Source of the DNA: Candidatus Uhrbacteria bacterium
GTDB lineage: Bacteria > Patescibacteriota > Patescibacteriia > UBA9934 > GWF2-40-263
Assembly: GCA_014239775.1 (NCBI GenBank)
Contig: JAAZYG010000005.1
Location: 6,746 to 70,745 of the forward strand
Reading direction: 5' to 3'
DNA length: 64,000 nt
The notes under the pieces: generated by a model
Databases searched by the model: none
Told to the model about the DNA's origin: nothing
What the model saw: the letters and a program-made list of their open reading frames with translations, nothing else
Translations under genes and position numbers: made by a program
In this document: positions 3,472-59,895 of the stretch, piece by piece
Position numbering within the stretch: the stretch's first letter is position 1
Layout: each line of letters starts with the position of its first letter

Positions 3472-3500
3472 TTGACAATAACGATTTATAAGGCTATTTT
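3472..3500 (+). promoter_or_regulatory. sigma70-like promoter candidate for the cyclase gene
   Basis: TTGACA (3472-3477), 17-nt spacer, TATTTT (3495-3500). Confidence 0.4.
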
Positions 3501-3572
3501 ATCATGAATATAGGAGGATAACTAAGTTCTTTAACAATTAAATATACTTAAACCACTTTTTTGGGGAAAACC

Positions 3573-5405
3573 ATGACTCTTGAACCGAGGTCATTGTCGC
3601 CAGTTAGAACCTGGGCAAGCATTAACGCGCCTCGCAACATATTACTTCTACTTGTTGGGTGCGAGCATTTAGGTGTACCTAAAAAGGTCATCTTCAATAG
3701 TTTACCTGATAGACTAAAAGGTAAATCGATATCATTAATGAGAAAAGATGAAGATCAAATTACTCTTGCAGAGTATGATGATGTTCTAAGACCTTTAATA
3801 GATCACTTAGGTCACGTGAGTCTACTGAGCGAAATTGGTCATGCATCACCAAAGATTGACTTTGGTTTTGAAACCGTCAAACGTATCGCAGGCACACTTC
3901 CTGGACTCGGTCATTTTGTTAGTCCATGGGTTGCATACAAACAACTCAATGAAGCTGCAAGAGCTTGGAATAATAACAAAATCTGGAAGGCTGATTTAAT
4001 AGATCACAACATGGTTAGGCTTATGTGTACATATAATCCTGCTAGTCCAACCGGACAAACCATCGATCGAATTAAAGACGCAGTTTCACTTTTGTATTTA
4101 ATCAGAGGGATGAATGAAGCTCTTCCAGGAATTTTTCCAGGAAGATACTTGTTGTCTGAAGTTAATTACAGACTAGTCAATCTACCACTAGAACAACTAC
4201 TGCGGACATTGTGTCCAAAAAGTAATATTGAATTTAGTGGAAATGTCTTATACTTCAACAATGAACTCGTTGCAACAAAGGTTTGGCTAAAACCAGACCA
4301 CAGAGGATGGTTCATGGGTGACTACTCACGAACTGAGATTGATGGTGTAATGACAACACCAGCAATCTTAATCTTAAAAGATGTGTGTACACAAGCGACA
4401 GGAAATGTATGTCCTGGTCAAATATTGCCACTAGTTCGTCTAGGTGAAATTTATCAAATCAACGAAGATGTGAGTCAATTTTCACACACAATACTGGACA
4501 TTCGGTGGAACACAACTTGGGCAGATAAAGTAAAAAGTTATCTACCGTTCGTTGGTGGTCATAAAAACTTCCAAAATGAGTTCATTACTGAAAACAGGGC
4601 GGTTGCAGCAACTCAACAAGTTTCGCTTGAAAAACGTAAGACTCAAATTTATACAGCACTTATTTCAGCGATTTATCCTGATAAATCAATGTTTCAATCT
4701 GTTCTTGAAGGTAAAAATCTTACAGTAATAGATGACACTACAGTGTCTTTGTTTGTTGACATTGCAAACTTCTCAAAATGGGCAAACTCCTGTGGAGCCA
4801 ATGAAGTATACAATTTTATGCAGCCCTTTATGACTGGTGTGAATAAAATTGCCTTACGTTGTCATGGTAAGCTGTGTAATTTTACCGGTGATGGATGTGC
4901 AATTAATTGGTTTGGTAAAATAGGACCCAGCAAACAATATTCAGTAAAACGAAGATTGCAATTTGCCATAGATGCATCTCTCTACATTTTGAAACTTGCA
5001 GATAATGCTGGATGTTCTGTACGTGTAGGAATTTCTGTTGGTCAAACAATCACATACACTATTCCTGTAGACAAAAGTGGTATTCAAGCAATGCCTGTCA
5101 CAAATGGAGTAGCAATGAATATGGCCGCAAGAGTGCAGGCTGCAATGAAACCAACACAACAAAAAATGAAATGTTCTGTTGCAGCAATGGATGATAGTGC
5201 AGAAAAAGTTCTTACAGCTGATGGAATCTTAAATATTGCACCATTAAACATAAGGATCATTGGTGTAGTCGAAGAAAAGTCTGATACATTTAGTTTATTC
5301 CAAATCATGCCAACAACAATGACTGAAAAGGACCAAAACTGGATCACACGGACTGGCGCAGACACGTCTATGAATATGCCCACAATCAACTCAAATGAGG
5401 ATTAA
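3573..5405 (+). CDS. class III nucleotidyl cyclase (adenylate/guanylate-cyclase-type catalytic domain) fused to an unassigned ~390-aa N-terminal domain
   Basis: C-terminal ~190 aa carries cyclase-homology-domain blocks: FVDIANFS (metal Asp), FTGDGCAINWF (second Asp), VRVGISVG and GVAMNMAARV (Asn/Arg). ATG at 3573 preferred over TTG at 3561. G+C is above the backbone (43% in the one row counted). Confidence 0.75.
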   Translation: MTLEPRSLSPVRTWASINAPRNILLLLVGCEHLGVPKKVIFNSLPDRLKGKSISLMRKDEDQITLAEYDDVLRPLIDHLGHVSLLSEIGHASPKIDFGFETVKRIAGTLPGLGHFVSPWVAYKQLNEAARAWNNNKIWKADLIDHNMVRLMCTYNPASPTGQTIDRIKDAVSLLYLIRGMNEALPGIFPGRYLLSEVNYRLVNLPLEQLLRTLCPKSNIEFSGNVLYFNNELVATKVWLKPDHRGWFMGDYSRTEIDGVMTTPAILILKDVCTQATGNVCPGQILPLVRLGEIYQINEDVSQFSHTILDIRWNTTWADKVKSYLPFVGGHKNFQNEFITENRAVAATQQVSLEKRKTQIYTALISAIYPDKSMFQSVLEGKNLTVIDDTTVSLFVDIANFSKWANSCGANEVYNFMQPFMTGVNKIALRCHGKLCNFTGDGCAINWFGKIGPSKQYSVKRRLQFAIDASLYILKLADNAGCSVRVGISVGQTITYTIPVDKSGIQAMPVTNGVAMNMAARVQAAMKPTQQKMKCSVAAMDDSAEKVLTADGILNIAPLNIRIIGVVEEKSDTFSLFQIMPTTMTEKDQNWITRTGADTSMNMPTINSNED

Positions 5406-5418
5406 TAAAGCATTACTA

Positions 5419-5447
5419 ACACCTGTTTATACAGGTGTTTTTTTATT
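5419..5447 (+). terminator. intrinsic terminator of the cyclase gene
   Basis: Perfect 9-bp stem AACACCTGT / ACAGGTGTT, loop TTAT, followed by a T-run. Confidence 0.8.
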
Positions 5448-5477
5448 AAGAAAACATAAACACACAACTTATATCTG

Positions 5478-5506
5478 TTGACAACCAGCATGTTTATATA
5501 TAAACT
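5478..5506 (+). promoter_or_regulatory. sigma70-like promoter candidate
   Basis: TTGACA (5478-5483), 17-nt spacer, TAAACT (5501-5506). Confidence 0.4.
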
Positions 5507-5560
5507 CTCAAGTCAACTTTGACAATCTGTTTTAAATAAAGTTTTTACAAGGAACAGTAA

Positions 5561-5887
5561 GTGATTTTTTCTGAAGTTTTTTATGTTGATTATGACCGAT
5601 CTGTTAAATTCAACCCAACCTTGCACAGTCAATTTGTAAAAAAATTTCTTGCATGGTCAAACCTTATAATTGTCGGTCCGCAGTATGAGCACAAACATCT
5701 GTACAATCACTTCTGTACAGATCATACAGCCCCACCAACATCACAGCTTATAGCTGCTGGTGATTGTACGGGCGATGGACATGTGTGGAGTTGGACAAGT
5801 GTTGGCTTTGGTTTTAAAACACCAAAAGACATCAAACCTCACATACTCAAGGCAATTCAAATGAAGGATGAAGCTTTAGGCTTCTAA
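5561..5887 (+). CDS. hypothetical 108-aa protein, GTG start
   Basis: ORF with AAGGAA 6 nt upstream of GTG 5561. No in-frame ATG near the 5' end and no recognisable motif. It sits between the cyclase terminator and a tRNA. Confidence 0.45.
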   Translation: MIFSEVFYVDYDRSVKFNPTLHSQFVKKFLAWSNLIIVGPQYEHKHLYNHFCTDHTAPPTSQLIAAGDCTGDGHVWSWTSVGFGFKTPKDIKPHILKAIQMKDEALGF

Positions 5888-5948
5888 CACTAAAGCTATG
5901 CTTTACTAAACATACAAACTTTTTGTGTGTTTTTTTATTTACACAATC

Positions 5949-5975
5949 AAAAAAACTACTAATACGTAGTTTTTA
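5949..5975. terminator. bidirectional hairpin terminator
   Basis: AAAAACTAC / GTAGTTTTT stem with a 6-nt loop, between the plus-strand ORF and the minus-strand tRNA-Thr. Confidence 0.6.
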
Positions 5976-5981
5976 AGTAAA

Positions 5982-6057
5982 TGGAGCCGTCACGCGGATT
6001 CGAACCGCGGACCTCATCCTTACCATGGATGCGCTCTACCTACTGAGCTATGACGGC
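5982..6057 (-). tRNA. tRNA-Thr (anticodon GGU), CCA encoded
   Basis: Reverse complement GCCGTCATAGCTCAGTAGGTAGAGCGCATCCATGGTAAGGATGAGGTCCGCGGTTCGAATCCGCGTGACGGCTCCA. Anticodon loop is ATGGTAA. Confidence 0.9.
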
Positions 6058-6067
6058 AATAATAATA

Positions 6068-6877
6068 TTATTCCTCACTTGTTTTTTGAATATATTCATC
6101 CTTTAATTTATAAAACCTACCCTCAAACTCATCAAGTTTTTTATTTTCTGGATTGACCTCCTGCAACAAGGTGATTCCTTTTCTAGCATCTTTTAATGAA
6201 CCAGCTCTAAGAGAAGTTTCAATATAAAAATCTAAATATTTTGGATTTTTAGACCTATTATCGATTGCCTTTTTTAGATAATCTAATGCAGATTTGTAAT
6301 TTAAAGAATCCATCTCCATCTCTGCAAGAGACACCAAAACACTAGCATCATTTGGTGAAATTTTTAATGTAAATTTATAAGTCTCTTTTGCCTGGTCATA
6401 TTTAGAACTCTTTTTATAAAGATCACCCAATCCTTCATATGCATCAACACTTTTTGGATTATGACTAATAATATCTATATAGATTTTTTCTGCATGTACA
6501 ACCTCATCTTTTTTGACTAAATCCTTAGCTTGATCAATTAATCGTCTTATTTCATCTTTATTGTAAGAGTGAACACCTTCTTCAGCTGTACGTTTTAATT
6601 TCTGATAATATTGCTCTAAAGAATATAATTTTTGTACAGCACGTCTACCGTATTTAGACGCAACACGAACAGCTCCAGAAGATGCTTTTACTACATTTCT
6701 AGCAACACCGCTCTTACGTTGTAATTTTTGTAATATAATCTTCTCTTTTACTTTTCGCGCCTTTTCTTTTGGTACTGATTCAATGTTAATAACACGTAAT
6801 TTTGGGATATTACGAACCAAAATAATAGAAATTGTAAACAAACAGAAAATAATTATAGAAACTAATATCCAAACCAT
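6068..6877 (-). CDS. membrane-anchored TPR-repeat protein
   Basis: N-terminal TM helix VWILVSIIIFCLFTISIILV. C-half has TPR-like repeats (AYEGLGDLYKKSSKYDQAKETYKFTLKISPND...). Confidence 0.65.
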   Translation of the reverse strand: MVWILVSIIIFCLFTISIILVRNIPKLRVINIESVPKEKARKVKEKIILQKLQRKSGVARNVVKASSGAVRVASKYGRRAVQKLYSLEQYYQKLKRTAEEGVHSYNKDEIRRLIDQAKDLVKKDEVVHAEKIYIDIISHNPKSVDAYEGLGDLYKKSSKYDQAKETYKFTLKISPNDASVLVSLAEMEMDSLNYKSALDYLKKAIDNRSKNPKYLDFYIETSLRAGSLKDARKGITLLQEVNPENKKLDEFEGRFYKLKDEYIQKTSEE

Positions 6878-6880
6878 ACT

Positions 6881-7654
6881 TTACTCTTGTGCTTCAAGGA
6901 CTTCACTTGCAGCCTCAATCACATCCTTGAATTGATTAATTTTAACACTTGCACCACCAACCAAAACTCCATCAATACTTTTCTCTCTTAATAAAGCATA
7001 TGCATTATCACCATTTACACTACCTCCATACAAAACATTTAATTGATCTTCCTTTATACCAGGAAAGATATCTGACAAAACAGTTTTAATAAACTCATGC
7101 ACCTCTATAACCTGTGCAACATCTGCATTTTTACCAGTACCGATTGCCCAAATGGGTTCATATGCTATAAACAATTTAGCTGAAGATCGTAATCTAATCC
7201 CACCTAATGCACTGGCTATTTGATTTTTTATAATCTCCAAATAACCACCCTCCTCTCTATGTTCAACACTCTCACCAATACACACTATTGGGGTTAAATT
7301 ATTCTCTAAAGCCTTTTTTAATTTCCTATTAACAATTTCATCCGTTTCAGAAAACAAACCCCTTCTTTCTGAATGCCCAATTAATACATGTGTTACACCG
7401 ACCTCATCTAACATTCTTGAAGAAATCTCACCAGTAAATGCACCCTTATCTTCCCATGACATGTTTTGTGCACATAAAGAAACAGATGACCTTGCGATCA
7501 CTTTTCTAACTTCCGACAAAGCAATAAATGAAGGACAAATGATTAAATTAGGAACAACTTTCCTACCCCTCAATGTCAAAAGCGTACCACGAGCCAACGC
7601 AATACTTTCTCTAACTCCCACATTCATCTTCCAATTTCCTATAACTGTTTTCAT
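6881..7654 (-). CDS. tpiA: triosephosphate isomerase
   Basis: Motifs GNWKMN, IGHSERR and YEPIWAIGTGK. Confidence 0.95.
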   Translation of the reverse strand: MKTVIGNWKMNVGVRESIALARGTLLTLRGRKVVPNLIICPSFIALSEVRKVIARSSVSLCAQNMSWEDKGAFTGEISSRMLDEVGVTHVLIGHSERRGLFSETDEIVNRKLKKALENNLTPIVCIGESVEHREEGGYLEIIKNQIASALGGIRLRSSAKLFIAYEPIWAIGTGKNADVAQVIEVHEFIKTVLSDIFPGIKEDQLNVLYGGSVNGDNAYALLREKSIDGVLVGGASVKINQFKDVIEAASEVLEAQE

Positions 7655-8919
7655 ATTTTTGCCTTCCTTATGAACTCCTCCTTAGACTTATAAGGACCTA
7701 TAACAGCAACTGTCATTTGATCTAAATCAAGAATTTCTTTTGCCACATCTTGAATTTCTTCCAAAGTTACTCCATCTATTTTTTTCAAATATGCAGCTGG
7801 TGTTTTAACATCATCTTTAAACAGTGCTTGTGTTGCATACCACGAAGCACGTTGATACGTATCTTCAAGCTGTATTGAAAACTGTCCTTGTATATATGTT
7901 TTCGCATCTACCAATTCTTGCTTTGTAACACCCTTTTTTATAATAGATTTTACCTCTTTTAAAATAGTCTTAACAGCAAGTGGTAACCGCTTTTTGTCCA
8001 AACCAGCCCTAATCATAAAAGTACCAATATCATCATATTGATGACTGTATGCACGTACAAAATATGCTAAGCCCAGTCTTTCTCGTACCTCAATAAAAAG
8101 CCGTGAACTCATGTTGCCACCTAATATCACAGAAAGCAAGGATACAATATGATTCTTTTTTGAATCAATACCATATGTATAAAATCCTAATGCTAATTGA
8201 ATTTGTTCTGTTTTTTTGTATTCAACACAAATTCTTGGTGATTTTTTTGGTTTTGTGATCTTAAACTCTTCAAAATCTTTATCTGACTTTCCTTTTCGAA
8301 CAACTGAAAATTTATTTTCAACCCAAACCTTAGCTTTTTTATTAATATTTCCAGAAACAACAACAACCATATTTGAAGCGCTATAATGCTTCTTATAATA
8401 TTCTAAAATTTCATCTCTTGGCATTTCTTTCATTGTCTTTGGTGTACCTGCTATATTTCGTCCCAACGTATTACCTTTATACATCTCGTCTTCAACAATA
8501 TCCTCAACATGACGCATAGGATTATCCCTATACATGTTAATTTCCTCAATCACCACACCACGCTCACGATCCAATTCTGTTTTATCAAAAACAGAATTAA
8601 ACAACATATCACTTAGAATATCTAAAGCTAATTTTAGGTGAGTCTTGCTAACTTTTACGTAATAACCTGTAACATGCTTATCTGTAAATGCATTAAAATC
8701 AGCACCAATTGAATCTAATTCTCTAGTAATGTCCTGAGTTGTTGGGCGACGTTTTGTGCCTTTAAACAATAAGTGCTCAATAAAATGTGACGCACCGTTT
8801 AGTTTTTTATATTCATACCTTGAACCAACTCCAACCAAAATCATGACCGTTACCGTGTCTGTGCCTTTTGAAGGAGCAAATAAAACTGGTAATGAATTTT
8901 TTAATGTAAATTTTTGCAT
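7651..8919 (-). CDS. M16 family zinc peptidase (pitrilysin-like)
   Basis: Inverted zinc motif HFIEHLLFKGT (HxxEH). Two-domain length. The TGA stop overlaps the tpiA ATG (ATGA). Confidence 0.85.
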   Translation of the reverse strand: MQKFTLKNSLPVLFAPSKGTDTVTVMILVGVGSRYEYKKLNGASHFIEHLLFKGTKRRPTTQDITRELDSIGADFNAFTDKHVTGYYVKVSKTHLKLALDILSDMLFNSVFDKTELDRERGVVIEEINMYRDNPMRHVEDIVEDEMYKGNTLGRNIAGTPKTMKEMPRDEILEYYKKHYSASNMVVVVSGNINKKAKVWVENKFSVVRKGKSDKDFEEFKITKPKKSPRICVEYKKTEQIQLALGFYTYGIDSKKNHIVSLLSVILGGNMSSRLFIEVRERLGLAYFVRAYSHQYDDIGTFMIRAGLDKKRLPLAVKTILKEVKSIIKKGVTKQELVDAKTYIQGQFSIQLEDTYQRASWYATQALFKDDVKTPAAYLKKIDGVTLEEIQDVAKEILDLDQMTVAVIGPYKSKEEFIRKAKI

Positions 8920-8929: not shown

Positions 8930-10306
8930 TTAAATATTTAATATCGAACCAAACCAATCTTGTAAATCAGTTATCTTAACTCTATTTTGTTTCATGGTAT
9001 CTCTGTCTCTAATGGTTACAGATTTATCATCCAACGTATCAAAATCAACAGTTATACAATAAGGTGTGCCGATCTCATCCTGTCGTCTATACCTCTTTCC
9101 TATAGACTGAGTTTCATCATAATCAACAACCCACTTTTCAGAAACCAAATCTAAGACCTCTTTACTAACACTCTGTAATTCTGGTTTTTTTGACAATGGC
9201 AAAACCGCAATATGAAATGGTGCTATGTGGTTTGGAAACCTCATTAAAACACGCACTTCTCCATTAACTTCCTCCTCATCATAACAACTCAACATCACTG
9301 CAAGCAAGGTTCTATCAACCCCCATTGATGGCTCTATAACATGAGGTACTATCTTTCGTGTGTTGTCATTTGGGTCAGTATAAACCAACTGCTGTCCTGA
9401 ATGTTTTGTGTGATTTTTTAAATCAAAATCGGTCCTATAAGCCAACCCCCAAAGTTCCTTACATCCAAATGGAAAATCAAATTCAAAATCAATTGTTTTA
9501 TTAGAATAATGAGCCAACTTATCTTTTGGAATATCCTTAGCATGAAATCGATCCATATCAATCCCTATACTTTTTGCCCACTCACTCATCCAATCACTCC
9601 AATCCTTAAAATGTTTTTCCCATTCATCTGATTCTACAAAATATTCAATCTCCATCTGTTCAAACTCCAAGGTCCTGAAAATAAAATTTCCAGGTGTAAT
9701 CTCATTACGAAATGCTTTACCGATTTGTGCAATTCCAAACGGAATACGTTTACGAGATGAATCTAGAACCTGCTTAAAATTCACAAATATTGCTTGAGCT
9801 GTTTCAGGTCGTAAATATACACTTGATTTTTCACCTTCTGTAATACCAATACCTGTCTCAAACATTAAATTAAAAGTCTTGACCTTTGTTAGATCATTTC
9901 CATCTGGACTCTTTATTTTATTATCTGTAATTAGCTTATTCAATTCCTTAATACTCATTCCATCCGCATTAACACCTTCAACATTCTCCTCAATTAAATG
10001 ATCGGCACGATACCTTTTATGTGTAACCTTATCTTCAACCAAAGGATCATTAAAAGAATCTACATGCCCTGATGCAACCCATATTTTTGGATTCATTAAA
10101 ATAGAGCCATCTAATCCAACCATGTCCTGACGAGACTCTACTACCCTATGCCACCAATCAGATTTTATATTTTTCCTTAATTGTGCACCAAGAGGACCAT
10201 AATCCCAAGAATTCGCGAGTCCACCATAAATTTCTGAACCAGCAAAGACAAACCCTCGCTTCTTAGCGAGGTTTGATATTTTTTCAATTGTAACAATATT
10301 TTTCAT
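8930..10306 (-). CDS. glyQS: glycine--tRNA ligase (alpha2 type)
   Basis: RGFVFAGSEIYGGLANSWDYGPLG and class II synthetase blocks. ATG at 10306 preferred over TTG at 10318. Confidence 0.9.
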   Translation of the reverse strand: MKNIVTIEKISNLAKKRGFVFAGSEIYGGLANSWDYGPLGAQLRKNIKSDWWHRVVESRQDMVGLDGSILMNPKIWVASGHVDSFNDPLVEDKVTHKRYRADHLIEENVEGVNADGMSIKELNKLITDNKIKSPDGNDLTKVKTFNLMFETGIGITEGEKSSVYLRPETAQAIFVNFKQVLDSSRKRIPFGIAQIGKAFRNEITPGNFIFRTLEFEQMEIEYFVESDEWEKHFKDWSDWMSEWAKSIGIDMDRFHAKDIPKDKLAHYSNKTIDFEFDFPFGCKELWGLAYRTDFDLKNHTKHSGQQLVYTDPNDNTRKIVPHVIEPSMGVDRTLLAVMLSCYDEEEVNGEVRVLMRFPNHIAPFHIAVLPLSKKPELQSVSKEVLDLVSEKWVVDYDETQSIGKRYRRQDEIGTPYCITVDFDTLDDKSVTIRDRDTMKQNRVKITDLQDWFGSILNI

Positions 10307-10331
10307 AGCACTACACAAAGCCTTTTTATGG

Positions 10332-10886
10332 TTACACTGTCATTATTTCTTTTTCTTTATTTACGGCAATATTAGAAATCTGTTCTGTATACTCATTTGT
10401 AAATTTATCTAATTCGTCAAGCATTTTAAATTTCTCATCTTCACTTATGTCCTTGTCTTTTTCTTGTTTCATTATTTGATCTCGTAATTCCTCTCGTACG
10501 TGACGAACCTTAATTCTTGCGTCCTCTATTCTGTCTTTCATGAGCTTGACCATGTTTTTTCTATTATCCTCTGTCATCATTGGCATTACTATCCTAATAA
10601 CATCCCCATCAACCACTGGACTTAATCCTATTCCAGAATCTCTAATAGCCTTTTCCATACTTTGTAACAAGGCTTTATCCCAAGGATCAATAGTAATTGT
10701 CTTTGCATCAGGTATTGTAATAGAAGAAAGGCCTTTCATTTCCATTATAGAGTCATATGCATTCACTGGAATATCCTCTACTAATGCAGGTGTTGCTCTG
10801 CCTGTACGCAAGGATGCCAAATCACCTTGCAAATACTCAATTACTGATTCAAATTTTGGTTTTTGTTGAACTAAAAATGTATGCAT
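10332..10886 (-). CDS. frr: ribosome recycling factor
   Basis: LRTGRATPALVEDI, ITIDPWD and a charged helical C-half. 184 aa. Confidence 0.9.
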   Translation of the reverse strand: MHTFLVQQKPKFESVIEYLQGDLASLRTGRATPALVEDIPVNAYDSIMEMKGLSSITIPDAKTITIDPWDKALLQSMEKAIRDSGIGLSPVVDGDVIRIVMPMMTEDNRKNMVKLMKDRIEDARIKVRHVREELRDQIMKQEKDKDISEDEKFKMLDELDKFTNEYTEQISNIAVNKEKEIMTV

Positions 10887-11956: not shown

Positions 11957-12922
11957 TTAAGTTAATAAAATATTTTCAAGAATCAAATGTGTGTTTACAT
12001 TGCTTTTTGCAACAATGCGAGCACGTCTAATTTCTTGAAGTAGGTTATATAAATCAATTATTTTAAATTTATTTGTTAATTTGTTAATATCGTCTTTATT
12101 ATTTTTATAAACACACAAATCATTGCAACCAATCTTATTCAACAACACATCTCTTAACACAGACTCCCACCTATCAAGAACTTCATGTAATTTTTTATTT
12201 TTATCAGTCTCTTGCTTTGTAATAATTTCTGTAACAGATTTAAACTTACGCGCTACCGAAGATTGAAACAAATGAGATACAGAAGAAACAACTATATCTA
12301 AATTTGCACGAAAAGATCCGTCCTTAATATATGATATTGCTAAACCTGGTCTGCCAAATGCTAAATCTGAAAATAAATCTGCTTGTTTTTTTCCAATACC
12401 ACTTTTTATAAGAGAGCTACTAATAAGATCACTTGATACTGTATACAAATTAATAACCTGACAACGAGAAACTATTGTTGCAGGCAAATCACTTATTGAA
12501 GTTGCACGTAAAATTAATAATGCTTTTCCATTAGGTTCTTCTAAGGTTTTCAACAAAGCATTCGAAGCACTCACAGATAATTTATCAGCCTCCTTTATAA
12601 AACCTACTTTATAACTACTTGCAAGAGGACTCATTGCCATCTTTTTATTAAACTCACGTATCTGCTCTACTGATATGTTTTGCTTTAACTTATCTTTGTC
12701 AGAAACTGTAGGTAATCTTTTAACAATAGAAACATCTGGTAATGATTCTAGACGATTTTGTGTATTTAATACATTGCGAATCAATTGCGTAATAACAGTT
12801 GTTTTTCCAGTATTTTTAGGACCAACAAAAAGCATACTATGTGGTAACTGATCGTTTTGAACCAATCTTGTAATGATCTCTTGAGCTGTTTTGTGTCCAA
12901 TTATTCCTGAAAATACGCTCAT
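11957..12922 (-). CDS. holB: DNA polymerase III delta-prime subunit
   Basis: LPHSMLFVGPKNTGKTT P-loop-like block and IVSRCQ sensor motif. ATG at 12922 preferred over GTG at 12940. Confidence 0.8.
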   Translation of the reverse strand: MSVFSGIIGHKTAQEIITRLVQNDQLPHSMLFVGPKNTGKTTVITQLIRNVLNTQNRLESLPDVSIVKRLPTVSDKDKLKQNISVEQIREFNKKMAMSPLASSYKVGFIKEADKLSVSASNALLKTLEEPNGKALLILRATSISDLPATIVSRCQVINLYTVSSDLISSSLIKSGIGKKQADLFSDLAFGRPGLAISYIKDGSFRANLDIVVSSVSHLFQSSVARKFKSVTEIITKQETDKNKKLHEVLDRWESVLRDVLLNKIGCNDLCVYKNNKDDINKLTNKFKIIDLYNLLQEIRRARIVAKSNVNTHLILENILLT

Positions 12923-13038
12923 ACTAGCATAGTATATCACACTTTATAATCTAAAACATTCATTACTTCTTGGTTATAATACATATGTATATATTACGAT
13001 TCGATCTTATTTGTCATAAATAACCAACAATTCTAATC

Positions 13039-13072
13039 ATCTTTATTTAGCTGAACTTAGCTAAATAAAGAT
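13039..13072. promoter_or_regulatory. perfect 13-bp inverted repeat just upstream of the island promoter (operator candidate)
   Basis: ATCTTTATTTAGC (13039-13051), 8-nt spacer, GCTAAATAAAGAT (13060-13072). It ends 18 nt before the -35 hexamer. No flanking T-run, so it is not a terminator. Confidence 0.4.
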
Positions 13073-13090
13073 ATTTCTAAATTGTAGGTC

Positions 13091-13119
13091 TTGACAAAAC
13101 TGACAAAAACTGTTATTAT
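13091..13119 (+). promoter_or_regulatory. sigma70-like promoter candidate of the 13-15 kb island
   Basis: TTGACA (13091-13096), 17-nt spacer, TATTAT (13114-13119). Confidence 0.5.
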
Positions 13120-13599
13120 TGTCATGTTGATAATCGGCATGTAAATCATTTATTTGAAAATGCCATACAATTGAATACTGGGGAGAGACCAGTGCTATCT
13201 GTGATTGTACAGATGCTCAATCATATAAAATCGATTTTTGTATGTGTCTTTACCTTGATACATTCAACAATCGGTTTTTTATTAATTAAGATTACGGAGG
13301 AGAGAGTGTACCCGTCCCTTCAAATCCGAAAGGAAGAGATGGGCGGTGGATACCAAATGGAATAACTGGGTTTACTCACTTAATCCATACGCAAGGAATC
13401 CGTTATTCATACCAACTCTTGAGTAGGTCACTGAATTTTTTCCCTCCGTGTTCTGAGTTAATAAAACCAAAAAAACTCTATTTATCTACTGTAGATAAAT
13501 ACTTTAACAAGGCAAGCGAACCAATTGAGATGCTTTGAGCTCTTGGTGACCGCATTGATGTGCATATTGACACATCTAGTCTTTTTCTCAGAGCGCTCC

Positions 13600-13637
13600 C
13601 CCTGATGGATGGGTATTTATATACCCATCCATCAGGG
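13600..13637 (+). other. 17-bp perfect hairpin
   Basis: CCCTGATGGATGGGTAT, loop TTAT, ATACCCATCCATCAGGG. Preceded by the 8-nt palindrome GAGCGCTC (13591-13598). Confidence 0.8.
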
Positions 13638-13664
13638 CCATTATTAATTTAACACAACCCCTTG

Positions 13665-13707
13665 CCCGATCGTAATCTTATTTACAAATAAGACATCTAC
13701 GATCGGG
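13665..13707 (+). other. long composite hairpin
   Basis: Outer 10 bp CCCGATCGTA / TACGATCGGG enclosing inner TCTTATT / AATAAGA. Followed by TTTC. Confidence 0.75.
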
Positions 13708-13763
13708 TTTCTGTCATAATACGCAATTTATTTGTGTGTTATGAAGGAAATCACATAAAAATA

Positions 13764-13826
13764 ATCTGATCTGGAATGAAGTAAATTATCAACTACTTCC
13801 TTCCAGATCAGATCCCCATGGTGGGG
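13764..13826 (+). other. long hairpin plus adjacent short GC hairpin
   Basis: 13-bp perfect ATCTGATCTGGAA / TTCCAGATCAGAT with inner GAAGTA / TACTTC, then CCCCA-TGG-TGGGG (13814-13826). Confidence 0.75.
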
Positions 13827-13887
13827 CTTTGAAAAGGACAGCACTGTGCAAATAAGCACAACACCATCTCAGAAAAGGAGAATTTTA

Positions 13888-15123
13888 ATGCTGCAAAACA
13901 TTTTTGAACCCCCCACCCTCATGGGAATGCAATTTTGTATTCCTGAAAACGACTCGCGTCCGGGCCTGCCGGGCAAGATCGAGGTTCTAGGTCGCAAGGC
14001 CCAGAAGTACTTCACAGGAAAGATAAACTTCCAAGAAAGCCATTTCAACAAAGGTGTTGCCGTCAGTCTGTGCATTCAGGCTGGTCAGGACTGGACCAAG
14101 TTGGGAAGCATTTCTGCGCTGAAAAAGCGTGGTAATGAGCTCCGGCTGATCTCTGAAGCCAGCGTGATTGCTGCTTCTACTGGTCTTCCGGTTGAATGGC
14201 TCGTTAAAGGAACTGAGTCTGTCGAAGGACTGCGAATGATCAAAAAGGCGGTTGAACTCGCTCGAAAGGTCAATCGTAATCACATGTTCTGGAGCAGTGT
14301 AATGACTCCCAGTCAAGTGATTGACCAGGAAATGAACGTCCTTTTGGCTCTGGAAGATGCCCTTATCACCGCACTCAAGACTAACCCCAAGAGTGATGAT
14401 GAGAAGGAAGATCTCAAGCAGAGTACAACGACTGTTGATCTGCGTGACATGGATATGGAGGCTTTCATCGAAGGTCTAGTTCCTGTACCTTCAGAACTTC
14501 CGAAGTTGCCTAGTACCAGGTCTGAATCCGACACCAAAGTCAAGGCAAAAACCTGTACTGACAACAATTGTGTGATCGTGAAGCGGATTGAACTGCATGA
14601 ACCTGGAACCTTGGTGGTTATTAATAACGAACTTCGTTATGTTTGCTGCGGCAAGCATGGCAAATGCCGTTCTTTGATGACACCTGAGGTCGCAAGAGTG
14701 ACTGCAGATGAAAGTAGGCTTCGACGTCAGTACCGGATCCCTGCTTGGAAGCAGATTGTGACTGAAGACTTTCAGTCTGATCGCCACACGGTCTACTGTC
14801 CGAGTTGTTCAAAATTCATCCTCAAGGATGGGTCAAAGACACTCGCACAATGGATCACTTCTGCTGAAGAGACTGAGAGAGATCTTTCTCGAAATGGTAG
14901 GCAAATCGCACGTAGCTTGGGATACAACAATCCCTTGAACAACGACGCCTACCTTGAGCTGGCATTGGCAGAGCCAGGACTGCGTGCTAACGGAATCGTT
15001 GGCCCCAATAAGACCCGAAAAGGTCCAATGGGAATTCGCGCAGCCTTGGCAATCTCCAAGACCAACCCGAATCGTCGTAACGGCAAAAACCGTAGCAACA
15101 ATCGGAATGCTCAACGCTCCTAA
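13888..15123 (+). CDS. orphan 411-aa protein: unassigned N-domain, acidic linker, Cys-rich zinc-ribbon-like region, Arg/Asn/Lys-rich C-terminal tail
   Basis: RBS AAGGAG (13875-13880) sits 7 nt before ATG 13888 (the track starts at GTG 13846). Cysteine clusters CTDNNC ... CCGKHGKC ... CPSC. Tail KTRKGPMG...NPNRRNGKNRSNNRNAQRS. Counted rows are 47-55% G+C versus 32-37% in flanking genes. The many antisense ORFs are typical of GC-rich coding DNA. Confidence 0.7.
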   Translation: MLQNIFEPPTLMGMQFCIPENDSRPGLPGKIEVLGRKAQKYFTGKINFQESHFNKGVAVSLCIQAGQDWTKLGSISALKKRGNELRLISEASVIAASTGLPVEWLVKGTESVEGLRMIKKAVELARKVNRNHMFWSSVMTPSQVIDQEMNVLLALEDALITALKTNPKSDDEKEDLKQSTTTVDLRDMDMEAFIEGLVPVPSELPKLPSTRSESDTKVKAKTCTDNNCVIVKRIELHEPGTLVVINNELRYVCCGKHGKCRSLMTPEVARVTADESRLRRQYRIPAWKQIVTEDFQSDRHTVYCPSCSKFILKDGSKTLAQWITSAEETERDLSRNGRQIARSLGYNNPLNNDAYLELALAEPGLRANGIVGPNKTRKGPMGIRAALAISKTNPNRRNGKNRSNNRNAQRS

Positions 15124-15228
15124 AAAGAGCACTTGTTAATCAATAAAACGATTAACACTTGGGGAACGTAGAAACACTCTTTCTGCGTTCCCCACTCATT
15201 AAAGGTCATAAGACAACTTGTGCTCTTT
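15124..15228 (+). other. structured 3' element (three-way-junction-like) directly after the stop codon
   Basis: Closing helix AAAGAGCAC (15124-15132) / GTGCTCTTT (15220-15228) encloses hairpin GTTAATC / GATTAAC (15135-15157) and the 14-bp hairpin GGGGAACGTAGAAA / TTTCTGCGTTCCCC (15161-15193). Confidence 0.5.
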
Positions 15229-15259
15229 AATGGGTATAGAATTCTCTCCCCAAGAGACC

Positions 15260-15289
15260 AAAATAACATCCTAATAAGGATGTTATTTT
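15260..15289 (+). terminator. intrinsic terminator of the orphan-gene transcript
   Basis: Perfect 12-bp stem AAAATAACATCC / GGATGTTATTTT, loop TAATAA. Confidence 0.65.
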
Positions 15290-15297
15290 GATATAAA

Positions 15298-15323
15298 AAG
15301 AACCCGGAAAAAACCGAGTTCTT
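15298..15323 (+). other. second hairpin after the terminator
   Basis: AAGAACCCGG, A6 loop, CCGAGTTCTT (one mismatch). Confidence 0.5.
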
Positions 15324-15476
15324 CTACTGGCACGACAAACGCACCCTCTCTCTTCATATCTACTTATGTAGACAAAAAACATTAACACATACACAAACTT
15401 TGTCAAGTATCTTAAACAAAGACAATAAAGATAACTAATAATCTCTATAAAAAAAGGCTTTTTATGTTTAAATTAC

Positions 15477-15505
15477 TTGACAAATATCATATTTTTTGTT
15501 AATCT
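15477..15505 (+). promoter_or_regulatory. sigma70-like promoter candidate for the small ORF
   Basis: TTGACA (15477-15482), 17-nt spacer, TAATCT (15500-15505). Confidence 0.4.
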
Positions 15506-15609
15506 AATCTTACAATTCAATCATGTCTATAAAAATAGATATACTACAACTGACTAGAGTGTGTGTTATGTAAATACAAAACCTCACTCTTTAGTATAGA
15601 GGAGGCAAA

Positions 15610-15762
15610 ATGCCTGGAAAGATAGAGGGAAATAAAGCAAACACGCTTAAACAGACGTGTATTACTAGAACTGCACTAAACTTCTGTAATTTTCGTCAAA
15701 CTGACATAAGTCGTAATCCACGACGTTTTCAACCTTGTTACATTTGTCCAGGCGGTGGTTAG
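15610..15762 (+). CDS. 50-aa four-cysteine small protein (hypothetical)
   Basis: Strong RBS AGAGGAGG 6 nt before the ATG. Sequence MPGKIEGNKANTLKQTCITRTALNFCNFRQTDISRNPRRFQPCYICPGGG. It has its own promoter candidate and a terminator. Below the ORF-track cutoff. Confidence 0.5.
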   Translation: MPGKIEGNKANTLKQTCITRTALNFCNFRQTDISRNPRRFQPCYICPGGG

Positions 15763-15802
15763 CTACTTTAACCAAACCTGTCGACTAAAAGTCATCTTAT
15801 CT

Positions 15803-15828
15803 ACGGCCACTAACTCACGGCCGTTTTA
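15803..15828. terminator. hairpin terminator between convergent small ORF and trmB-like gene
   Basis: ACGGCC / GGCCGT stem, 10-nt loop, followed by TTTT. Confidence 0.55.
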
Positions 15829-15830
15829 TG

Positions 15831-16607
15831 TTACTCAAATTTTTGTTTCTTATAATTTTCAGCACCTCTCCATGCTAATTCAAACAAAGCTTTTACAGTA
15901 TCTGCAATTTCCTTACTGGTAATGACCACTGACAAAATAGCTGATTTATATGAAAATAAAAATATATGATTATCTCTCACAACAATACTTCCATGAATCG
16001 GAAACTCACTTGCAGGTATAATTCGTATCTCCCCTTTTCCCATGTGAGGTAATGATACATCTGATTCATCTTCAACAATTGCAAGAACCCTGTGTTCAGT
16101 ATCGCTAGTTCTTAAAGTTGCATGGTGAGCATCTCTGTCGTGCATTACTTCAATTGTATTTTGAACATCCTCAAAAGGAAATATTTCAAAAAATTCACCA
16201 TCTAATTTTTCAAACATTGAACGAACTGTCTTAATCCCTTCAATTCCTTCAAGATATCTGATTTGCGGCTTTGTACCTTCTGCATTAAAAAGAGCCATTA
16301 ACATTGGTAATGTTTTATCTAACTCTGCTCTTTTTTCTGCTATCGCCCTATTTTGAGTATCTAAAATTGCACCAAGTCTTTCTGGAGACTCAGCTGCATA
16401 AAAACGCTTCTTACCTTTTACAAAAGTTGACATAAGACCACGTCCTGACAAAGATTCTATCATGACGTAAGTAGTTGCTCTGTTTACTTTTGATTTATGT
16501 GATATGTCTTGAACAGGTGAAGGACCCAACTCTAAAGCCGCCAGGTACACTGACGCCTCTTTATCAGAGAGTCCTAAATGTTTTAATTCATTGATTAGCT
16601 CATCCAT
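15831..16607 (-). CDS. TrmB-family transcriptional regulator
   Basis: N-terminal winged HTH LGLSDKEASVYLAALELGPSPVQDISHKSKVNRATTYVMIESL. TrmB-like C-domain length. Confidence 0.75.
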   Translation of the reverse strand: MDELINELKHLGLSDKEASVYLAALELGPSPVQDISHKSKVNRATTYVMIESLSGRGLMSTFVKGKKRFYAAESPERLGAILDTQNRAIAEKRAELDKTLPMLMALFNAEGTKPQIRYLEGIEGIKTVRSMFEKLDGEFFEIFPFEDVQNTIEVMHDRDAHHATLRTSDTEHRVLAIVEDESDVSLPHMGKGEIRIIPASEFPIHGSIVVRDNHIFLFSYKSAILSVVITSKEIADTVKALFELAWRGAENYKKQKFE

Positions 16608-46098: not shown

Positions 46099-47314
46099 AA
46101 AAGATTGAACAAGCGTATTTTAATTGCTTATATAACTCCTTAAGATTAAGTGAACTTTTACAAAACTCTGACTTAACAAGCACCAAACGCCCAATCACAG
46201 ACTCAAGGATTTGATGTCTGAAACCCTCATCAAGACGCTGTCCTGTAAACACATCTGCTCGAGTCAATACATCATACACACCAACAAGACGTTTATGTAT
46301 AAATTCAATTCTTTGACTTGAAATAACTTGTTTTTGATTTTGATACCATGCAACAATCAATAAAATTTCCTCAAGAACCCAATGTTGTTGAAGTAAAATC
46401 ATAGATCTATATACTCGCCTCAAAGCATCGCCAGCAGACGTCATCATTGATGCGTTCAATTGATCAGCAGCACTCGACATTAAATGCGATGCTTCCTGCA
46501 AATCCAACACAACATAACTCAAAGAACGTTTAAATGGTCGTATAGAAATCTGATGCACCTCATTAGAATAACAATCAATATTTTCTACAGCCTTGCGCAC
46601 CAAACTATTAGTTCTTGAGTGACCAAATAGTTCATTCGAGTTCAATAATTCCATGACATATGAGCGTATACTAATGCATTTTTCATGTAATTGAGCAAGA
46701 TAAACCTCCAAAACGACTGCCCTGTGCTCCATTATTCTTCCAACACCACGCAGACTATGAATGGCCTGTAAATATTCACGTGATCTTTTTAAAATTTTAG
46801 GACCAATCTCTCTACCAGATACTGAGCTGTTATGTACAACTAAATCTAAATCTAGTTGTACTGGATACCAAATAAAACCCACACCATCTTCGGAACACAC
46901 ATTAGATAAAATCCAGGACATATTTTCTAAATCAAAATTAGATCCTGATAAATGCTTTACTTCATGATGAGACAACAAATGATATTTCGGATTAATACGA
47001 CTATATGCTCGTCTTAAATCATTTATTGATCTAAACTGTTGAAAAACATGATCTTGCCTTAATGCTAAATTCTGTTTAACCCTTGCGGTTAGCCCCATGT
47101 TCCTACTTAAAATATGACCAACAAACACACCACCAACATTCTCTCTTGCAACATACAAAGTGTTATTAACGAGAATTTCAAGTTTAATATTTTCTATTAA
47201 AGCAGGTTCTTTTTTATTAGAACCTTTAGCTGATGCCATTATCGTTAAATCACGACGTATAATTACCGGATTGCTTAAATTAGGCCAAACAACCCTAGGT
47301 TCACTTTTTGTCAA
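46097..47314 (-). CDS. orphan 405-aa predicted helical protein, TTG start
   Basis: RBS GGAGGTG (47328-47322) upstream of TTG 47314. It has its own promoter candidate, a 5'-UTR hairpin (47335-47357) and a terminator. One counted row is 45% G+C. No motif recognised. Confidence 0.6.
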   Translation of the reverse strand: MTKSEPRVVWPNLSNPVIIRRDLTIMASAKGSNKKEPALIENIKLEILVNNTLYVARENVGGVFVGHILSRNMGLTARVKQNLALRQDHVFQQFRSINDLRRAYSRINPKYHLLSHHEVKHLSGSNFDLENMSWILSNVCSEDGVGFIWYPVQLDLDLVVHNSSVSGREIGPKILKRSREYLQAIHSLRGVGRIMEHRAVVLEVYLAQLHEKCISIRSYVMELLNSNELFGHSRTNSLVRKAVENIDCYSNEVHQISIRPFKRSLSYVVLDLQEASHLMSSAADQLNASMMTSAGDALRRVYRSMILLQQHWVLEEILLIVAWYQNQKQVISSQRIEFIHKRLVGVYDVLTRADVFTGQRLDEGFRHQILESVIGRLVLVKSEFCKSSLNLKELYKQLKYACSIF

Positions 47315-58172: not shown

Positions 58173-58269
58173 ATTTTTTCCTTTTTAGACTTCAGTGGCA
58201 ACTTTTGGCCCATAAATCATGGGAGGATCAAAAGAGGTTGTATCCACTTGTGAAATTAATTACGCGAAA

Positions 58270-58298
58270 AGTATAAGAAAAAACCTAAAATAAGTCAA
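58270..58298 (-). promoter_or_regulatory. sigma70-like promoter candidate for rpsB-tsf, leaving a ~90-nt leader
   Basis: On the minus strand: TTGACT (58298-58293), 17 nt, TATACT (58275-58270). Confidence 0.4.
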
Positions 58299-58308
58299 TA
58301 TTACCAAC

Positions 58309-58334
58309 AAAAAAACAGCGATTTCTCGCTGTTT
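58309..58334 (-). terminator. intrinsic terminator of the M20 peptidase gene
   Basis: ACAGCGA / TCGCTGT stem, loop TTTC. U-run on the minus RNA (A-run 58309-58314). Confidence 0.7.
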
Positions 58335-58339
58335 GACGA

Positions 58340-59794
58340 TTAAACATCGTCAGCAATGTGAATATAATGATCTCTCAATACCTTTGCAATGCAAGCTGTA
58401 AGCTTTTTTGCATAAGGAATATGAAGAAATTCATTAGGCCCGTGTGCATTTGCACCTGGCCCTAACACACCAGTAATCACAAACTGTGATTGAGGGAACT
58501 TATCATGAAGCATTTTCATAAATGGAATTGTTCCACCTTCACCCATATACAAAGCTTTTTCTTCAAAAAAAGCCATTGAAGCACCCTGAATAGATGATTC
58601 GAGCCAAGAAGCAAGCGTTGGAGCATGCCACCCAGGCCTTGCAGTACCAGTAAAGGTCACTTTTGCATGAATGAGTTCATGGTTTTCAAGCATGAACTTC
58701 ACTTCCCTATATGCAACTTCTGGATCCAAAGTTGGTGGGATTCGAATAGACAACTTTAACTCTGTAAATGGTCTTAATACATTTCCAGCATCCTTAATTG
58801 CTGGAATACCACCAACACCAGTTACCGACATGGCCGGACCCCATGTTCTTGCAAGAACAAGATCCGTAAGTTCATCTGACTCGATGTCAGGTGAATTATG
58901 TGCCCATTGAAACCGCTCATACAAAGCATGTCCAATTGTCTGTGCTGCATCTTGTGCTTGCTCGCGACGCTCTTCAGGAATATCAACACACAAAAAATCA
59001 CTCATGTGTTTTTCAAATACACAACCATTTGTGCTTTCAATCCTATCCAATGCACTCCTAATGATTCGGAAGCTGGATTCAACAATGCCACTTGCATCAC
59101 CCGAATGAACACCTTCCTCGAGCACATCAACACGCAATGTACCTATAACCAAACCTCGCAATGAGCTTGTAAGCCACAACTGATCATAATTACCTGCCCC
59201 AGAATCAAGACAAATAACCAAATCTGGTTCGCCAATGCGATCAGACAAGTGATCAAGATAAAAAGGAAGGTCTGGACTACCAGACTCTTCACCTGTTTCA
59301 ATGAGTATAACGCAACGAGCATGCGATATGTTTTGTTTTTGAAGTGCCAAAACAGCTGTCAAACTTGCAAAAACAGAATAACCATCATCTGCCCCACCGC
59401 GTCCATATAACCGCTCATCACCTTTATCATCAACGATGATCTTTGGTGTCCACGGGCCAAGACCGCGCTCTGCGTCCCAACCAACCATTTCTGGTTGCTT
59501 GTCTAGATGTCCGTACATCAGCACGGTTGCATCAGAATCACCTGGAATCTCCAACAACAAAATAGGTGTACGACCATCAATGTCAATAACCTCAACACTA
59601 ACATGCTTGGGCGCATGCGCACGACACCAATTTTCTGCTAATTCTACAACCTTATGCACATGACCATTTGACCTCCATTGAGCATCAAAAGCCTTGCTTT
59701 TTGCTGGAATTGCAATATATTCCTTAAGTGTTTTTAAAATTTTCTCATCCCAGAATTTATTCACCCAATCTAATAACAATACAGTGTTCATCAC
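58340..59794 (-). CDS. M20-family metallopeptidase (dipeptidase / ArgE-DapE-CPG2 superfamily)
   Basis: MYGHLDKQP, GRGGADDGYS and ETGEESGS blocks. One counted row is 52% G+C, well above the backbone. Confidence 0.8.
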   Translation of the reverse strand: MMNTVLLLDWVNKFWDEKILKTLKEYIAIPAKSKAFDAQWRSNGHVHKVVELAENWCRAHAPKHVSVEVIDIDGRTPILLLEIPGDSDATVLMYGHLDKQPEMVGWDAERGLGPWTPKIIVDDKGDERLYGRGGADDGYSVFASLTAVLALQKQNISHARCVILIETGEESGSPDLPFYLDHLSDRIGEPDLVICLDSGAGNYDQLWLTSSLRGLVIGTLRVDVLEEGVHSGDASGIVESSFRIIRSALDRIESTNGCVFEKHMSDFLCVDIPEERREQAQDAAQTIGHALYERFQWAHNSPDIESDELTDLVLARTWGPAMSVTGVGGIPAIKDAGNVLRPFTELKLSIRIPPTLDPEVAYREVKFMLENHELIHAKVTFTGTARPGWHAPTLASWLESSIQGASMAFFEEKALYMGEGGTIPFMKMLHDKFPQSQFVITGVLGPGANAHGPNEFLHIPYAKKLTACIAKVLRDHYIHIADDV

Positions 59795-59895
59795 AACTCT
59801 CCTTTAATACTGACAAAAAATAGGTTAATCCCTCCTTTTTTTTAATGTACTGTTCAAACAACTTGGCAAAAAAAAGTCAAAAAGTCAATACTAAA

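Follow-up and report, generated by a model that had tools for sequence, protein, structure and literature searches.

A stretch of 64,000 nucleotides (nt) of a Candidatus Uhrbacteria contig (JAAZYG010000005.1, positions 6,746 to 70,745; hereafter the window) had been described in a preliminary description as carrying five single-gene islets of raised G+C content, each acquired from a foreign source. The analysis reported here showed that these five islets, numbered 1 to 5 along the window, are unrelated things and not one phenomenon. One of them, islet 2 between holB and a gene for a TrmB-family regulator, appears from its sequence to be an old, conserved cassette, vertically retained in a group of Uhrbacteria-like Patescibacteria, and not a recent import, because the same locus was found in at least five deeply diverged lineages and its composition showed no decay. 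The whole reading, namely five unrelated islets of which islet 2 is a retained RNA-protein cassette with a presumed cis-acting leader and a maintained G+C content, is given a probability of about 0.6.

The window has a G+C content of 34.2% and belongs to a contig of the candidate phyla radiation (CPR; Patescibacteria), with a gene content typical of that group (DUF4012, MreB, GT4, TIM, RRF, HolB, short EF-Ts, LexA/DinB). Its HolB was 100% identical to HolB on contig L003 (ENA scaffold BUSC20-1_SAMN14422882 scaffold_856; contigs used for comparison are given L numbers), and the next-closest matches reached only 43 to 48% identity, the named ones being 'Candidatus Uhrbacteria' or 'Patescibacteria group'. 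G+C, G+C at third codon positions (GC3) and a Karlin-type codon-usage distance were computed for each gene, with ranks taken among 58 genes. The backbone (n = 52 genes) gave a G+C of 33.7% (sd 2.9) and a GC3 of 22.0% (sd 3.0). In this check, which the preliminary description had itself proposed, only islets 2 and 3 were strong outliers in composition and codon usage (z 4 to 10; Table 1). Islets 1 and 5 deviated mildly, and islet 4 had the composition of the backbone and is not an islet. The G+C percentages quoted earlier were peaks of short rows and not averages of genes. Each islet had also been said to have its own promoter and terminator; this held for islet 1, with two units, and for islets 2 and 3 (strong -35/-10 pair), while islets 4 and 5 had a terminator only. 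The counts of promoter-like sites did not exceed those of shuffled sequences in any of the regions scanned.

Relatives of the islet 2 cassette were found via HolB, a DNA pattern, a degenerate protein scan and an exhaustive HMMER search; the first attempts, a genome scan with HolB and a metagenome scan with the shallow alignment A2, gave no matches. In all relatives found, the cassette lay immediately 5' of holB and was oriented divergently (holB is present beside it in L004 to L007, L009 to L012 and L017), and trmB adjoined it wherever the contig extended far enough (L004, L016 and L017). A comparison of presence and absence, proposed earlier as a check on acquisition, thus spoke against acquisition of islet 2: the unit kept its place between holB and trmB in five or more deeply diverged lineages, whose HolB was 34 to 43% identical to that of the window. 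The trmB of this gene pair encodes a transcription regulator (PF01978) and not the tRNA methyltransferase. On L017 the gene order was TIM-M16-GlyRS-RRF-BNR-HolB, then the leader, ORF346, ORF185 and a micropeptide gene, then TrmB-GT4-MreB-DUF4012, which is the order of the window. The gap between holB and trmB in the window measures 2.9 kb, of which the cassette takes up 13046-15830, and holds a single long open reading frame (ORF). Logan contig L001 aligned end to end with window positions 13048 to 15236 at 81% identity. Some lineages carried a second G+C-rich ORF in the cassette, on L007 at 4430-5047 (205 amino acids [aa]; main ORF at 5686-7368) and on L017 at 9178-9735 (185 aa). Neither extra ORF had obvious similarity to the main cassette protein, and the 205-aa ORF was preceded by a duplicated copy of the proximal leader described below. 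A phage origin of islet 2 was rejected, as PHROG gave no hit and viral contigs matched neither the protein nor the DNA pattern. A group II intron, an IscB/TnpB-type guide RNA with its nuclease and a retron or other reverse transcriptase were likewise rejected, the ORF having no reverse transcriptase, RuvC or transposase domain.

In the cassette promoter the sequence TTGACAAnAnTGACAAAA was kept in L001, L004 and L007; equivalent promoters were found on L007 (3838-3866) and L017 (6955-6983). The two palindromic boxes in front of it were kept as a pair in the window/L001 and L004/L007 lineages (alignment A5), and this is their sole tandem occurrence in the window. The pair may form an operator on which the neighbouring TrmB-family regulator could act. 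The leader of about 760 nt had a minimum free energy of -260 kcal/mol compared with -172 kcal/mol in shuffled sequences (z = -16.9), and its local folding had a mean z of -4.6, against -1.9 to +0.1 in control genes. Between the window and L001, 214 predicted pairs were compared; 14 had compensatory changes and essentially none was broken.

Within the leader lies a conserved module of about 160 nt, on the sense strand between promoter and ORF and, by its position in the sequence, more than 430 nt from the ATG at 13888. Its invariant elements are AAUGGA, ACUnAAUCCAUAC and GGUCACUG. Three deep lineages supplied the seven modules of alignment A6, a tandem pair among them coming from lineage C. Among its 53 pairs 26 were changed on both sides, a result matched by 0 of 500 shuffles, and 96.5% of the cells were paired compared with 31 to 48% when the partners were slid. 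Covariance model R1, trained on these modules, gave them 145 to 163 bits for the sense strand and no more than 24 bits for the antisense strand; in the window it found a single copy, with 162 bits on the plus and 21 bits on the minus strand. Modules on which it had not been trained were recovered on L017 (107 bits) and L018 (126 bits), and all matches were at this locus. A full second module on L017 was rejected, since only a partial duplicate (10.7 bits) was present. At the gathering threshold, Rfam detected three tRNAs and the L10 leader only in the window. For the cassette RNA, Rfam 15 gave no match at that threshold and chance-level hits only (E <= 5 for the window, E <= 1 for L001, L007 and L008), so that rRNA or another known RNA was rejected as the source of the G+C peak at 13 to 15 kb. 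Nothing relevant to the cassette motif was found in the literature on CPR bacteria and Uhrbacteria. Judged by its covariation, the leader module is thus a conserved structured RNA of a kind that appears not to have been described.

Further structure follows downstream of the module. The terminator-like hairpin and U-run at 13557-13590 had its stem kept in L001 by a compensatory change from A-U to G-C; it is a candidate attenuator or, alternatively, the candidate 3' end of a separate RNA of about 460 nt. The order of the proximal hairpins before the start codon recurred in L001, in L016 and in front of both ORFs of L004/L007, and the stretch CCCCATGGTGGGG..GAAAGG was nearly identical in L016 despite a G+C content of 74% there. 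In lineage B the proximal leader was duplicated ahead of each of two ORFs. The 3' untranslated region (UTR) also folded strongly (local z = -10.5 for 15076-15225; the alignment with L001 stops at 15236).

The ORF encodes a protein of 411 aa. Compared with L001 its dN/dS was 0.24, with 79, 42 and 130 differences at the first, second and third codon positions, and it is therefore truly coding and under purifying selection. Alignment A7 (12 sequences) showed an N-terminal ..RPGLPG.LEVLGR.. motif, a helical domain with a helix-turn-helix (HTH)-like IAxxxGLPxxWL stretch, a basic or acidic, disordered linker of low complexity, a zinc ribbon of the form VC.G..G.C ... FCP.C...IL (C253, C260, C304 and C307 conserved) and a basic tail. 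Close homologues numbered two among 5.8 billion proteins, and the exhaustive HMMER search yielded about 10 clusters among 1.84 billion proteins. An exact look-up of the window ORF and of QueA returned no record. A further homologue was an uncalled ORF of 561 aa on L004 (6264-7949, minus strand; BLASTP E = 3e-11 and 3e-6 in colinear segments), in place of which the public annotation has an antisense ORF of 662 aa called in DNA of 60 to 70% G+C. Cassettes of high G+C generally had such a long antisense ORF called (635 to 686 aa, rich in G, L, D and R), as on L004 (5916-7976 plus, against 6264-7949 minus) and L007 (5659-7566 minus, against 5686-7368 plus). These antisense calls are probably one reason for the rarity of the family in databases. 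AlphaFold2 gave a pLDDT (predicted local distance difference test) score of 69 with the 12-sequence alignment, both domains reaching 78 to 91, compared with 38 for a 3-sequence alignment. From these comparisons the cassette protein appears to form a new, fast-evolving family.

Between the cassette ORF and trmB lies a micropeptide gene of 50 codons. Related C-termini were encoded at the same place elsewhere: L004 has ...DPTRFQPHYICIVGG (4327-4482, minus strand), L016 ...DPRFLRPHCHCPGGG (about 2230-2320) and L017 ...NPRHMQPHMHCPGGS (about 10330-10460). The common motif is (D/N)P.R(F/H)(Q/L/M).P(H/C).(I/H)C(P/I)(G/V)G(G/S)*, which in the window ends in CxCPGG. The gene has its own promoter-like site, with an equivalent on L017 at 10052-10079, and its own terminator. 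The product could be a small zinc-binding peptide or one resembling ribosomally synthesized and post-translationally modified peptides (RiPPs).

The raised G+C of islet 2 was not peculiar to the window. GC3 of the cassette ORF was 0.51 in the window compared with 0.22 in the neighbouring genes; the corresponding values were 0.79 and 0.83 versus 0.24-0.35 on L017, 0.88 and 0.86 versus 0.31-0.37 on L007, 0.90 versus 0.50 on L008/L011, and 0.96 versus 0.62-0.66 on L016. In every lineage, GC3 of the ORF thus exceeded that of its neighbours by 0.3 to 0.55. The G+C of the ORF tended to rise with that of the host (49% in a 34% host, 64% in 40%, 65% in 44% and 68% in 48%), and therefore gives no pointer to a common donor. 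On the L016 and L018 contigs it was 69 to 74%, and that of the flanking genes 54 to 57%. Substitutions between the window and L002, polarised with L001 as outgroup, comprised 19 from GC to AT and 25 from AT to GC, a small sample. Decay toward the host GC3 of 0.22 predicts a ratio of about 3.5:1, and the composition is therefore maintained and not decaying, as far as this small sample allows. The island is mostly the coding part, because the leader has a G+C of only 37.7%. Local folding of the ORF (mean z = -1.1) was not clearly beyond that of the controls (-1.9 to +0.1). Selection on RNA structure alone therefore fails to explain the G+C of the ORF, and the view of the whole transcript as one structured RNA was rejected for the same reason.

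The cassette also differed between close relatives. On L004 and L007 the RRF-BNR-holB flank (3.5 kb) was 100% identical; divergence began at the 5' end of holB, and identity in the cassette varied between 67 and 99% per 250 nt in a mosaic profile. dS was 0.018 for holB, 0.094 for ORF560 and 0.51 for ORF205, with a dN/dS of about 0.45. Contigs frequently broke at or inside the cassette: L001 begins at 13048, and L007, L010 and L011 end within it. L003, in which the same organism was assembled independently, has Ns at window positions 13022 to 13039, which is the left edge of the cassette, and ends at 14007, 120 nt inside the ORF. An enrichment of single-nucleotide polymorphisms in L003 relative to the window was rejected, since the differences in the islet were only this scaffold gap. 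These observations fit a hypervariable or recombining locus that varies in the population.

In the preferred reading, a single promoter would drive a long structured leader, which carries the module of about 160 nt (in tandem in one lineage), and then the fast-evolving protein with its HTH-like and zinc-ribbon domains. The leader would act in cis on expression of the protein. By analogy with the leaders of ribosomal-protein genes, the likeliest route would be feedback of the putative nucleic-acid-binding protein on its own leader; sensing of a ligand via the internal terminator-like hairpin and the hairpins beside the ribosome-binding site is a possible alternative route. The palindrome pair would serve as operator for the TrmB-type regulator, and the high G+C may be upheld through GC-biased gene conversion, given frequent recombination at the locus, through selection acting on the transcript, or through the two together. 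Several points weigh against this reading. A distance of more than 430 nt between module and start codon is unusual for a cis-regulator, and the terminator-like hairpin was not obviously kept outside the window/L001 lineage and was not recognised in lineage B. The protein had no Pfam, NCBIfam, PHROG or PDB match and no detectable homologue of known function, its AlphaFold2 model had no match among solved folds, and the functions proposed for RNA and protein are putative. The folding of the ORF lay within the range of the controls, as given above. Pairwise distances between lineages were star-like and uninformative on co-divergence of cassette and host, and to our knowledge there is no precedent for bacterial GC-biased conversion that raises GC3 by 0.3 to 0.55.

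The other explanations concern the origin of the islets and the action of the RNA. An assembly chimera or a contaminant on a CPR contig would account for the abrupt jump in G+C and for the gap and end of the L003 scaffold, and yet its probability is next to nil. L003 independently joins holB to the leader and the start of the ORF, L017 spans both junctions, L016 spans the junction of ORF and trmB, and L004, L005, L007 and L011 span that with holB. Since assemblies made independently cross each of the two junctions, a chimera is refuted. Five recent and independent acquisitions of single genes, with their own promoters and terminators and without mobility genes, are very unlikely, and for islets 2 and 4 this view is already refuted. 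In its favour, islets 2 and 3 stand far apart from the backbone in composition, homologues of islet 3 occur in phage-like contexts, islet 1, which L004 lacks, is part of a block that divides a tRNA cluster, and islets 1 to 3 each have a promoter and a terminator. Against these observations stand the synteny of islet 2 in at least five deeply diverged lineages without decay of composition, the backbone composition of islet 4, the ordinary codon usage of islet 5 and the absence of a promoter match for islets 4 and 5. The gene pairs said to be interrupted are not canonical either, and the true pair rpsB-tsf is unbroken. The reported absence of integrases and transposases was borne out by Pfam for the islet proteins, the flanking genes and about 20 other genes of the window, and no flanking repeats were seen, though no search aimed at flanking repeats was made. 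Foreign acquisition is thus contradicted for islets 2 and 4, plausible for islet 3, and possible for islet 1, which was absent at the syntenic position in L004; as a blanket reading, five acquisitions are unsupported. A milder form of import, in which islet 2 is a replaceable cassette at a holB/trmB hot spot and alleles with their excess of G+C are swapped via the flanks from relatives of higher G+C, is doubtful. It agrees with the identical flanks of L004 and L007 beside cassettes at dS 0.09 to 0.51 with mosaic identity, with the assembly breaks at the cassette edges and with the variation of ORF number and length between lineages. The G+C of the ORF, however, tends to follow that of the host, a pattern that suits a common offset more than a common donor. 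In none of the lineages seen did the composition of the cassette match the host, the substitutions in the window lineage were balanced, and promoter, palindromes and RNA module were conserved with the locus.

It is possible, though not probable, that the RNA acts in trans as a non-coding partner of the zinc-ribbon protein, transcription stopping mostly at the internal terminator to give an RNA of about 460 nt. The hairpin and U-run at 13557-13590, kept by compensatory change, would suit such an RNA, as would the long distance between module and start codon, the tandem modules of lineage C, the basic tail and zinc ribbon of the protein, which are typical of nucleic-acid binders, and the constant co-occurrence of RNA and protein. 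On the other side, no second promoter was detected between module and ORF in the window, the hairpins before the ribosome-binding site were conserved with the ORF, and the duplicated proximal leader in front of each ORF of lineage B fits a role in cis. An improbable extension of the preferred reading would make the cassette a new kind of self-contained ribonucleoprotein system, composed of the RNA, a diversifying zinc-ribbon/HTH protein and the micropeptide. Diversifying selection would then drive the hypervariability between strains, and the extreme, host-independent G+C would be actively selected or would be the footprint of the diversification mechanism. Such a system might, for example, help these episymbiotic bacteria with defence, exclusion or interaction with their host, and its G+C might protect the transcript from A/U-specific ribonucleases or mark a dedicated mechanism of recombination or diversification.

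The cassette was compared with known systems. Like the ribosomal-protein L10 leader (RF00557), it has a structured RNA in the 5' UTR with covariation, hairpins beside the ribosome-binding site and a putative nucleic-acid binder as product; unlike autoregulatory leaders of that type, it is far longer (about 760 nt), has no Rfam match and precedes a protein that is not ribosomal and whose binding is hypothetical. With tandem-aptamer riboswitches such as the glycine riboswitch it shares a multi-stem junction, invariant unpaired nucleotides, tandem modules in one lineage and a terminator-like hairpin downstream. It differs from them in having no known ligand or metabolic clue from the gene, in the distance of more than 430 nt from module to start and in an expression platform that is not conserved from lineage to lineage. 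Large RNAs such as OLE, GOLLD, ROOL and raiA similarly stand out by composition and strong folding in A+T-rich genomes and are multi-domain, but their covariance models did not match the cassette, and its excess of G+C lies mostly in the protein-coding part and not in the leader. Horizontally acquired islets, like the cassette, deviate in G+C and codon usage, come with a promoter and terminator of their own and vary between strains; in contrast, the position of the cassette is fixed across deep lineages, it has no mobility genes and shows no decay, and the G+C of its ORF tends to rise with that of the host.

An island can thus stand out sharply in G+C and have a promoter and terminator to itself without necessarily being foreign DNA. 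The RNA would represent an undescribed class, strongly supported by covariation, from a phylum with very few known regulatory RNAs, and the protein an undescribed family partly missed by public gene callers through the antisense calls in its high-G+C versions. As a vertically retained locus whose GC3 lies 0.3 to 0.55 above the genome and which diverges far faster than its flanks, the cassette may offer a bacterial test bed for GC-biased conversion versus selection on the transcript. It also offers a practical explanation for the recurrent contig breaks beside holB in metagenome assemblies of CPR bacteria.

Table 1. Features of islet 2 and its neighbours and of the other four islets (window coordinates; RBS, ribosome-binding site).
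Feature	Position	Strand	Details
Islet 1	3472-5887	+	Two monocistronic units, 610-614-aa protein and 108-aa ORF; promoters 3472-3500 and 5478-5506; terminator 5418-5439; G+C 38.3-39.1% (z 1.6-1.9), GC3 28.6-32.1% (z 2.2-3.4), codon-bias ranks 13 and 3 of 58
holB (DNA polymerase III delta')	11957-12940	-	PF13177; left-hand divergent neighbour of cassette
Palindromic box, two adjacent copies	13046-13065		TTAGCTGAA / TTAGCTAAA; just 5' of -35 element
Cassette promoter	13091-13119	+	TTGACA, 17 nt, TG-extended TATTAT; 11/12 consensus match
Structured 5' leader RNA	13126-13887	+	About 760 nt; G+C 37.7%
Conserved RNA module	13294-13450	+	About 160 nt; closing stem GGAGG(AGAGAG)...CCTCC around three hairpin arms (four stems)
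Terminator-like hairpin and U-run in leader	13557-13590	+	Stem kept in L001
Proximal leader hairpins	13765-13860	+	Long hairpin 13765-13812; CCCCATGGTGGGG at 13814-13826; GCAC..GTGC; precede RBS
Cassette ORF (islet 2)	13888-15123	+	411 aa; likely ATG start at 13888, RBS AAGGAG; G+C 48.8% (z 5.2), GC3 50.7% (z 9.6), codon-bias rank 1/58
Structured 3' UTR and intrinsic terminator	15124-15289	+	Hairpin 15260-15289, then T-run, read from sequence
Micropeptide promoter-like site	15477-15505	+	TTGACA, 17 nt, TAATCT, read from sequence
Micropeptide ORF	15610-15762	+	50 codons; RBS GAGGAGG; C-terminus ...NPRRFQPCYICPGGG
TrmB-family transcription regulator	15831-16607	-	PF01978; right-hand neighbour; 68% identity to L004 protein
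Islet 3	29508-30100	-	169-aa protein, four zinc-ribbon repeats; ATG 30028; promoter 30100-30072; terminator 29528-29508; 29519-30028: G+C 45.5% (z 4.1), GC3 37.6% (z 5.2), codon-bias rank 2/58
Islet 4	46097-47314	-	405-aa ORF; terminator only, 46098-46085; G+C 34.8% (z 0.4), GC3 24.9% (z 1.0), codon-bias rank 52/58
Islet 5	58313-59794	-	M20-family peptidase, 484 aa; PF01546 E = 2e-16; NCBIfam PRK07907 188 bits; terminator 58334-58313; G+C 42.1% (z 2.9), GC3 29.7% (z 2.6), codon-bias rank 21/58

Among the other islets, islet 3 had the clearest affinity. Its DNA is a tandem repeat of 129 nt in 3.5 copies, and the encoded repeats, C..GC..H..KGxCxKHY.(Q/N)W, matched the N-terminal zinc-ribbon repeats of phage HNH (HNH_3) homing endonucleases (phrog_5351, E = 3.6e-30; phrog_1271). 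Unlike these enzymes, the protein consists of the four repeats only: Pfam and PHROG detected no HNH nuclease domain, and the zinc-ribbon repeats alone matched. Only 22 homologues were found, some of which carry HNH_3 (PF13392), and both contexts inspected (L013 and L014) were phage- or prophage-like. The zinc-ribbon repeat gene of islet 3 is probably of phage descent, and a foreign origin is plausible. A membrane protein of the Phage_holin_4_2 family (E = 7e-35) is encoded upstream of pyrH at 30869-31222 (minus strand), about 0.8 kb from islet 3, and may share its phage-derived neighbourhood. Directly past the terminator of islet 3 the L10 leader RF00557 (48 bits) was found at 29306-29435 (minus strand) with its own promoter, TTGACA-17-TATACT, at 29501-29473. 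The rplJ gene of the window does not have rplK and rplA upstream.

Islet 1 is the only one of the five that adjoins tRNA genes. At 1746-6057 a block of 4 kb, made up of plsC-HAD, of backbone composition, and islet 1, parts tRNA-Thr(ggt) from tRNA-Tyr(gta) and tRNA-Thr(tgt); in L004 and L011 these three tRNA genes form one contiguous cluster (<1 kb). The cyclase-like gene was absent at the syntenic position in L004, the one relative checked. Islet 1 is an accessory insertion in the tRNA cluster, and a foreign origin is possible. The larger protein had been taken for a cyclase; its C-terminus gave a Guanylate_cyc match of 18.2 bits (E = 0.002), which is under the Pfam cut-off of 21.9 and makes a class III nucleotidyl cyclase a weak lead only.

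The 405-aa ORF of islet 4 matched no family in Pfam, NCBIfam or PHROG. Islet 5 is an ordinary, bona fide M20 peptidase with mildly raised G+C, with a dimerisation domain (PF07687, E = 1e-4) beside the catalytic domain PF01546; rplL (G+C 42.2%) is about as rich in G+C. The TTGACT element that had been assigned to this peptidase gene (58298-58270) lies 3' of it and 5' of rpsB and is followed at 17 nt by TATACT; the site is, by its sequence and position, the predicted promoter of rpsB.

Low-G+C stretches that had not been flagged earlier have at least an equal claim to be accessory DNA. A pair of genes for LexA and a Y-family polymerase (IMS/DinB-like) lies on the minority strand at 39903-42271 (plus); the polymerase gene and the preceding spacer had a G+C of 27.8 to 28%, which ranks with the lowest values in the window, and lexA 38%. 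The stretch at 20.9 to 22.7 kb contains two GT2 genes and had a G+C of 29%. An ORF of 744 aa at 26040-28274 (plus), also on the minority strand, had no Pfam match, a G+C of 30.6%, a GC3 of 17% and a strongly positive AT skew.

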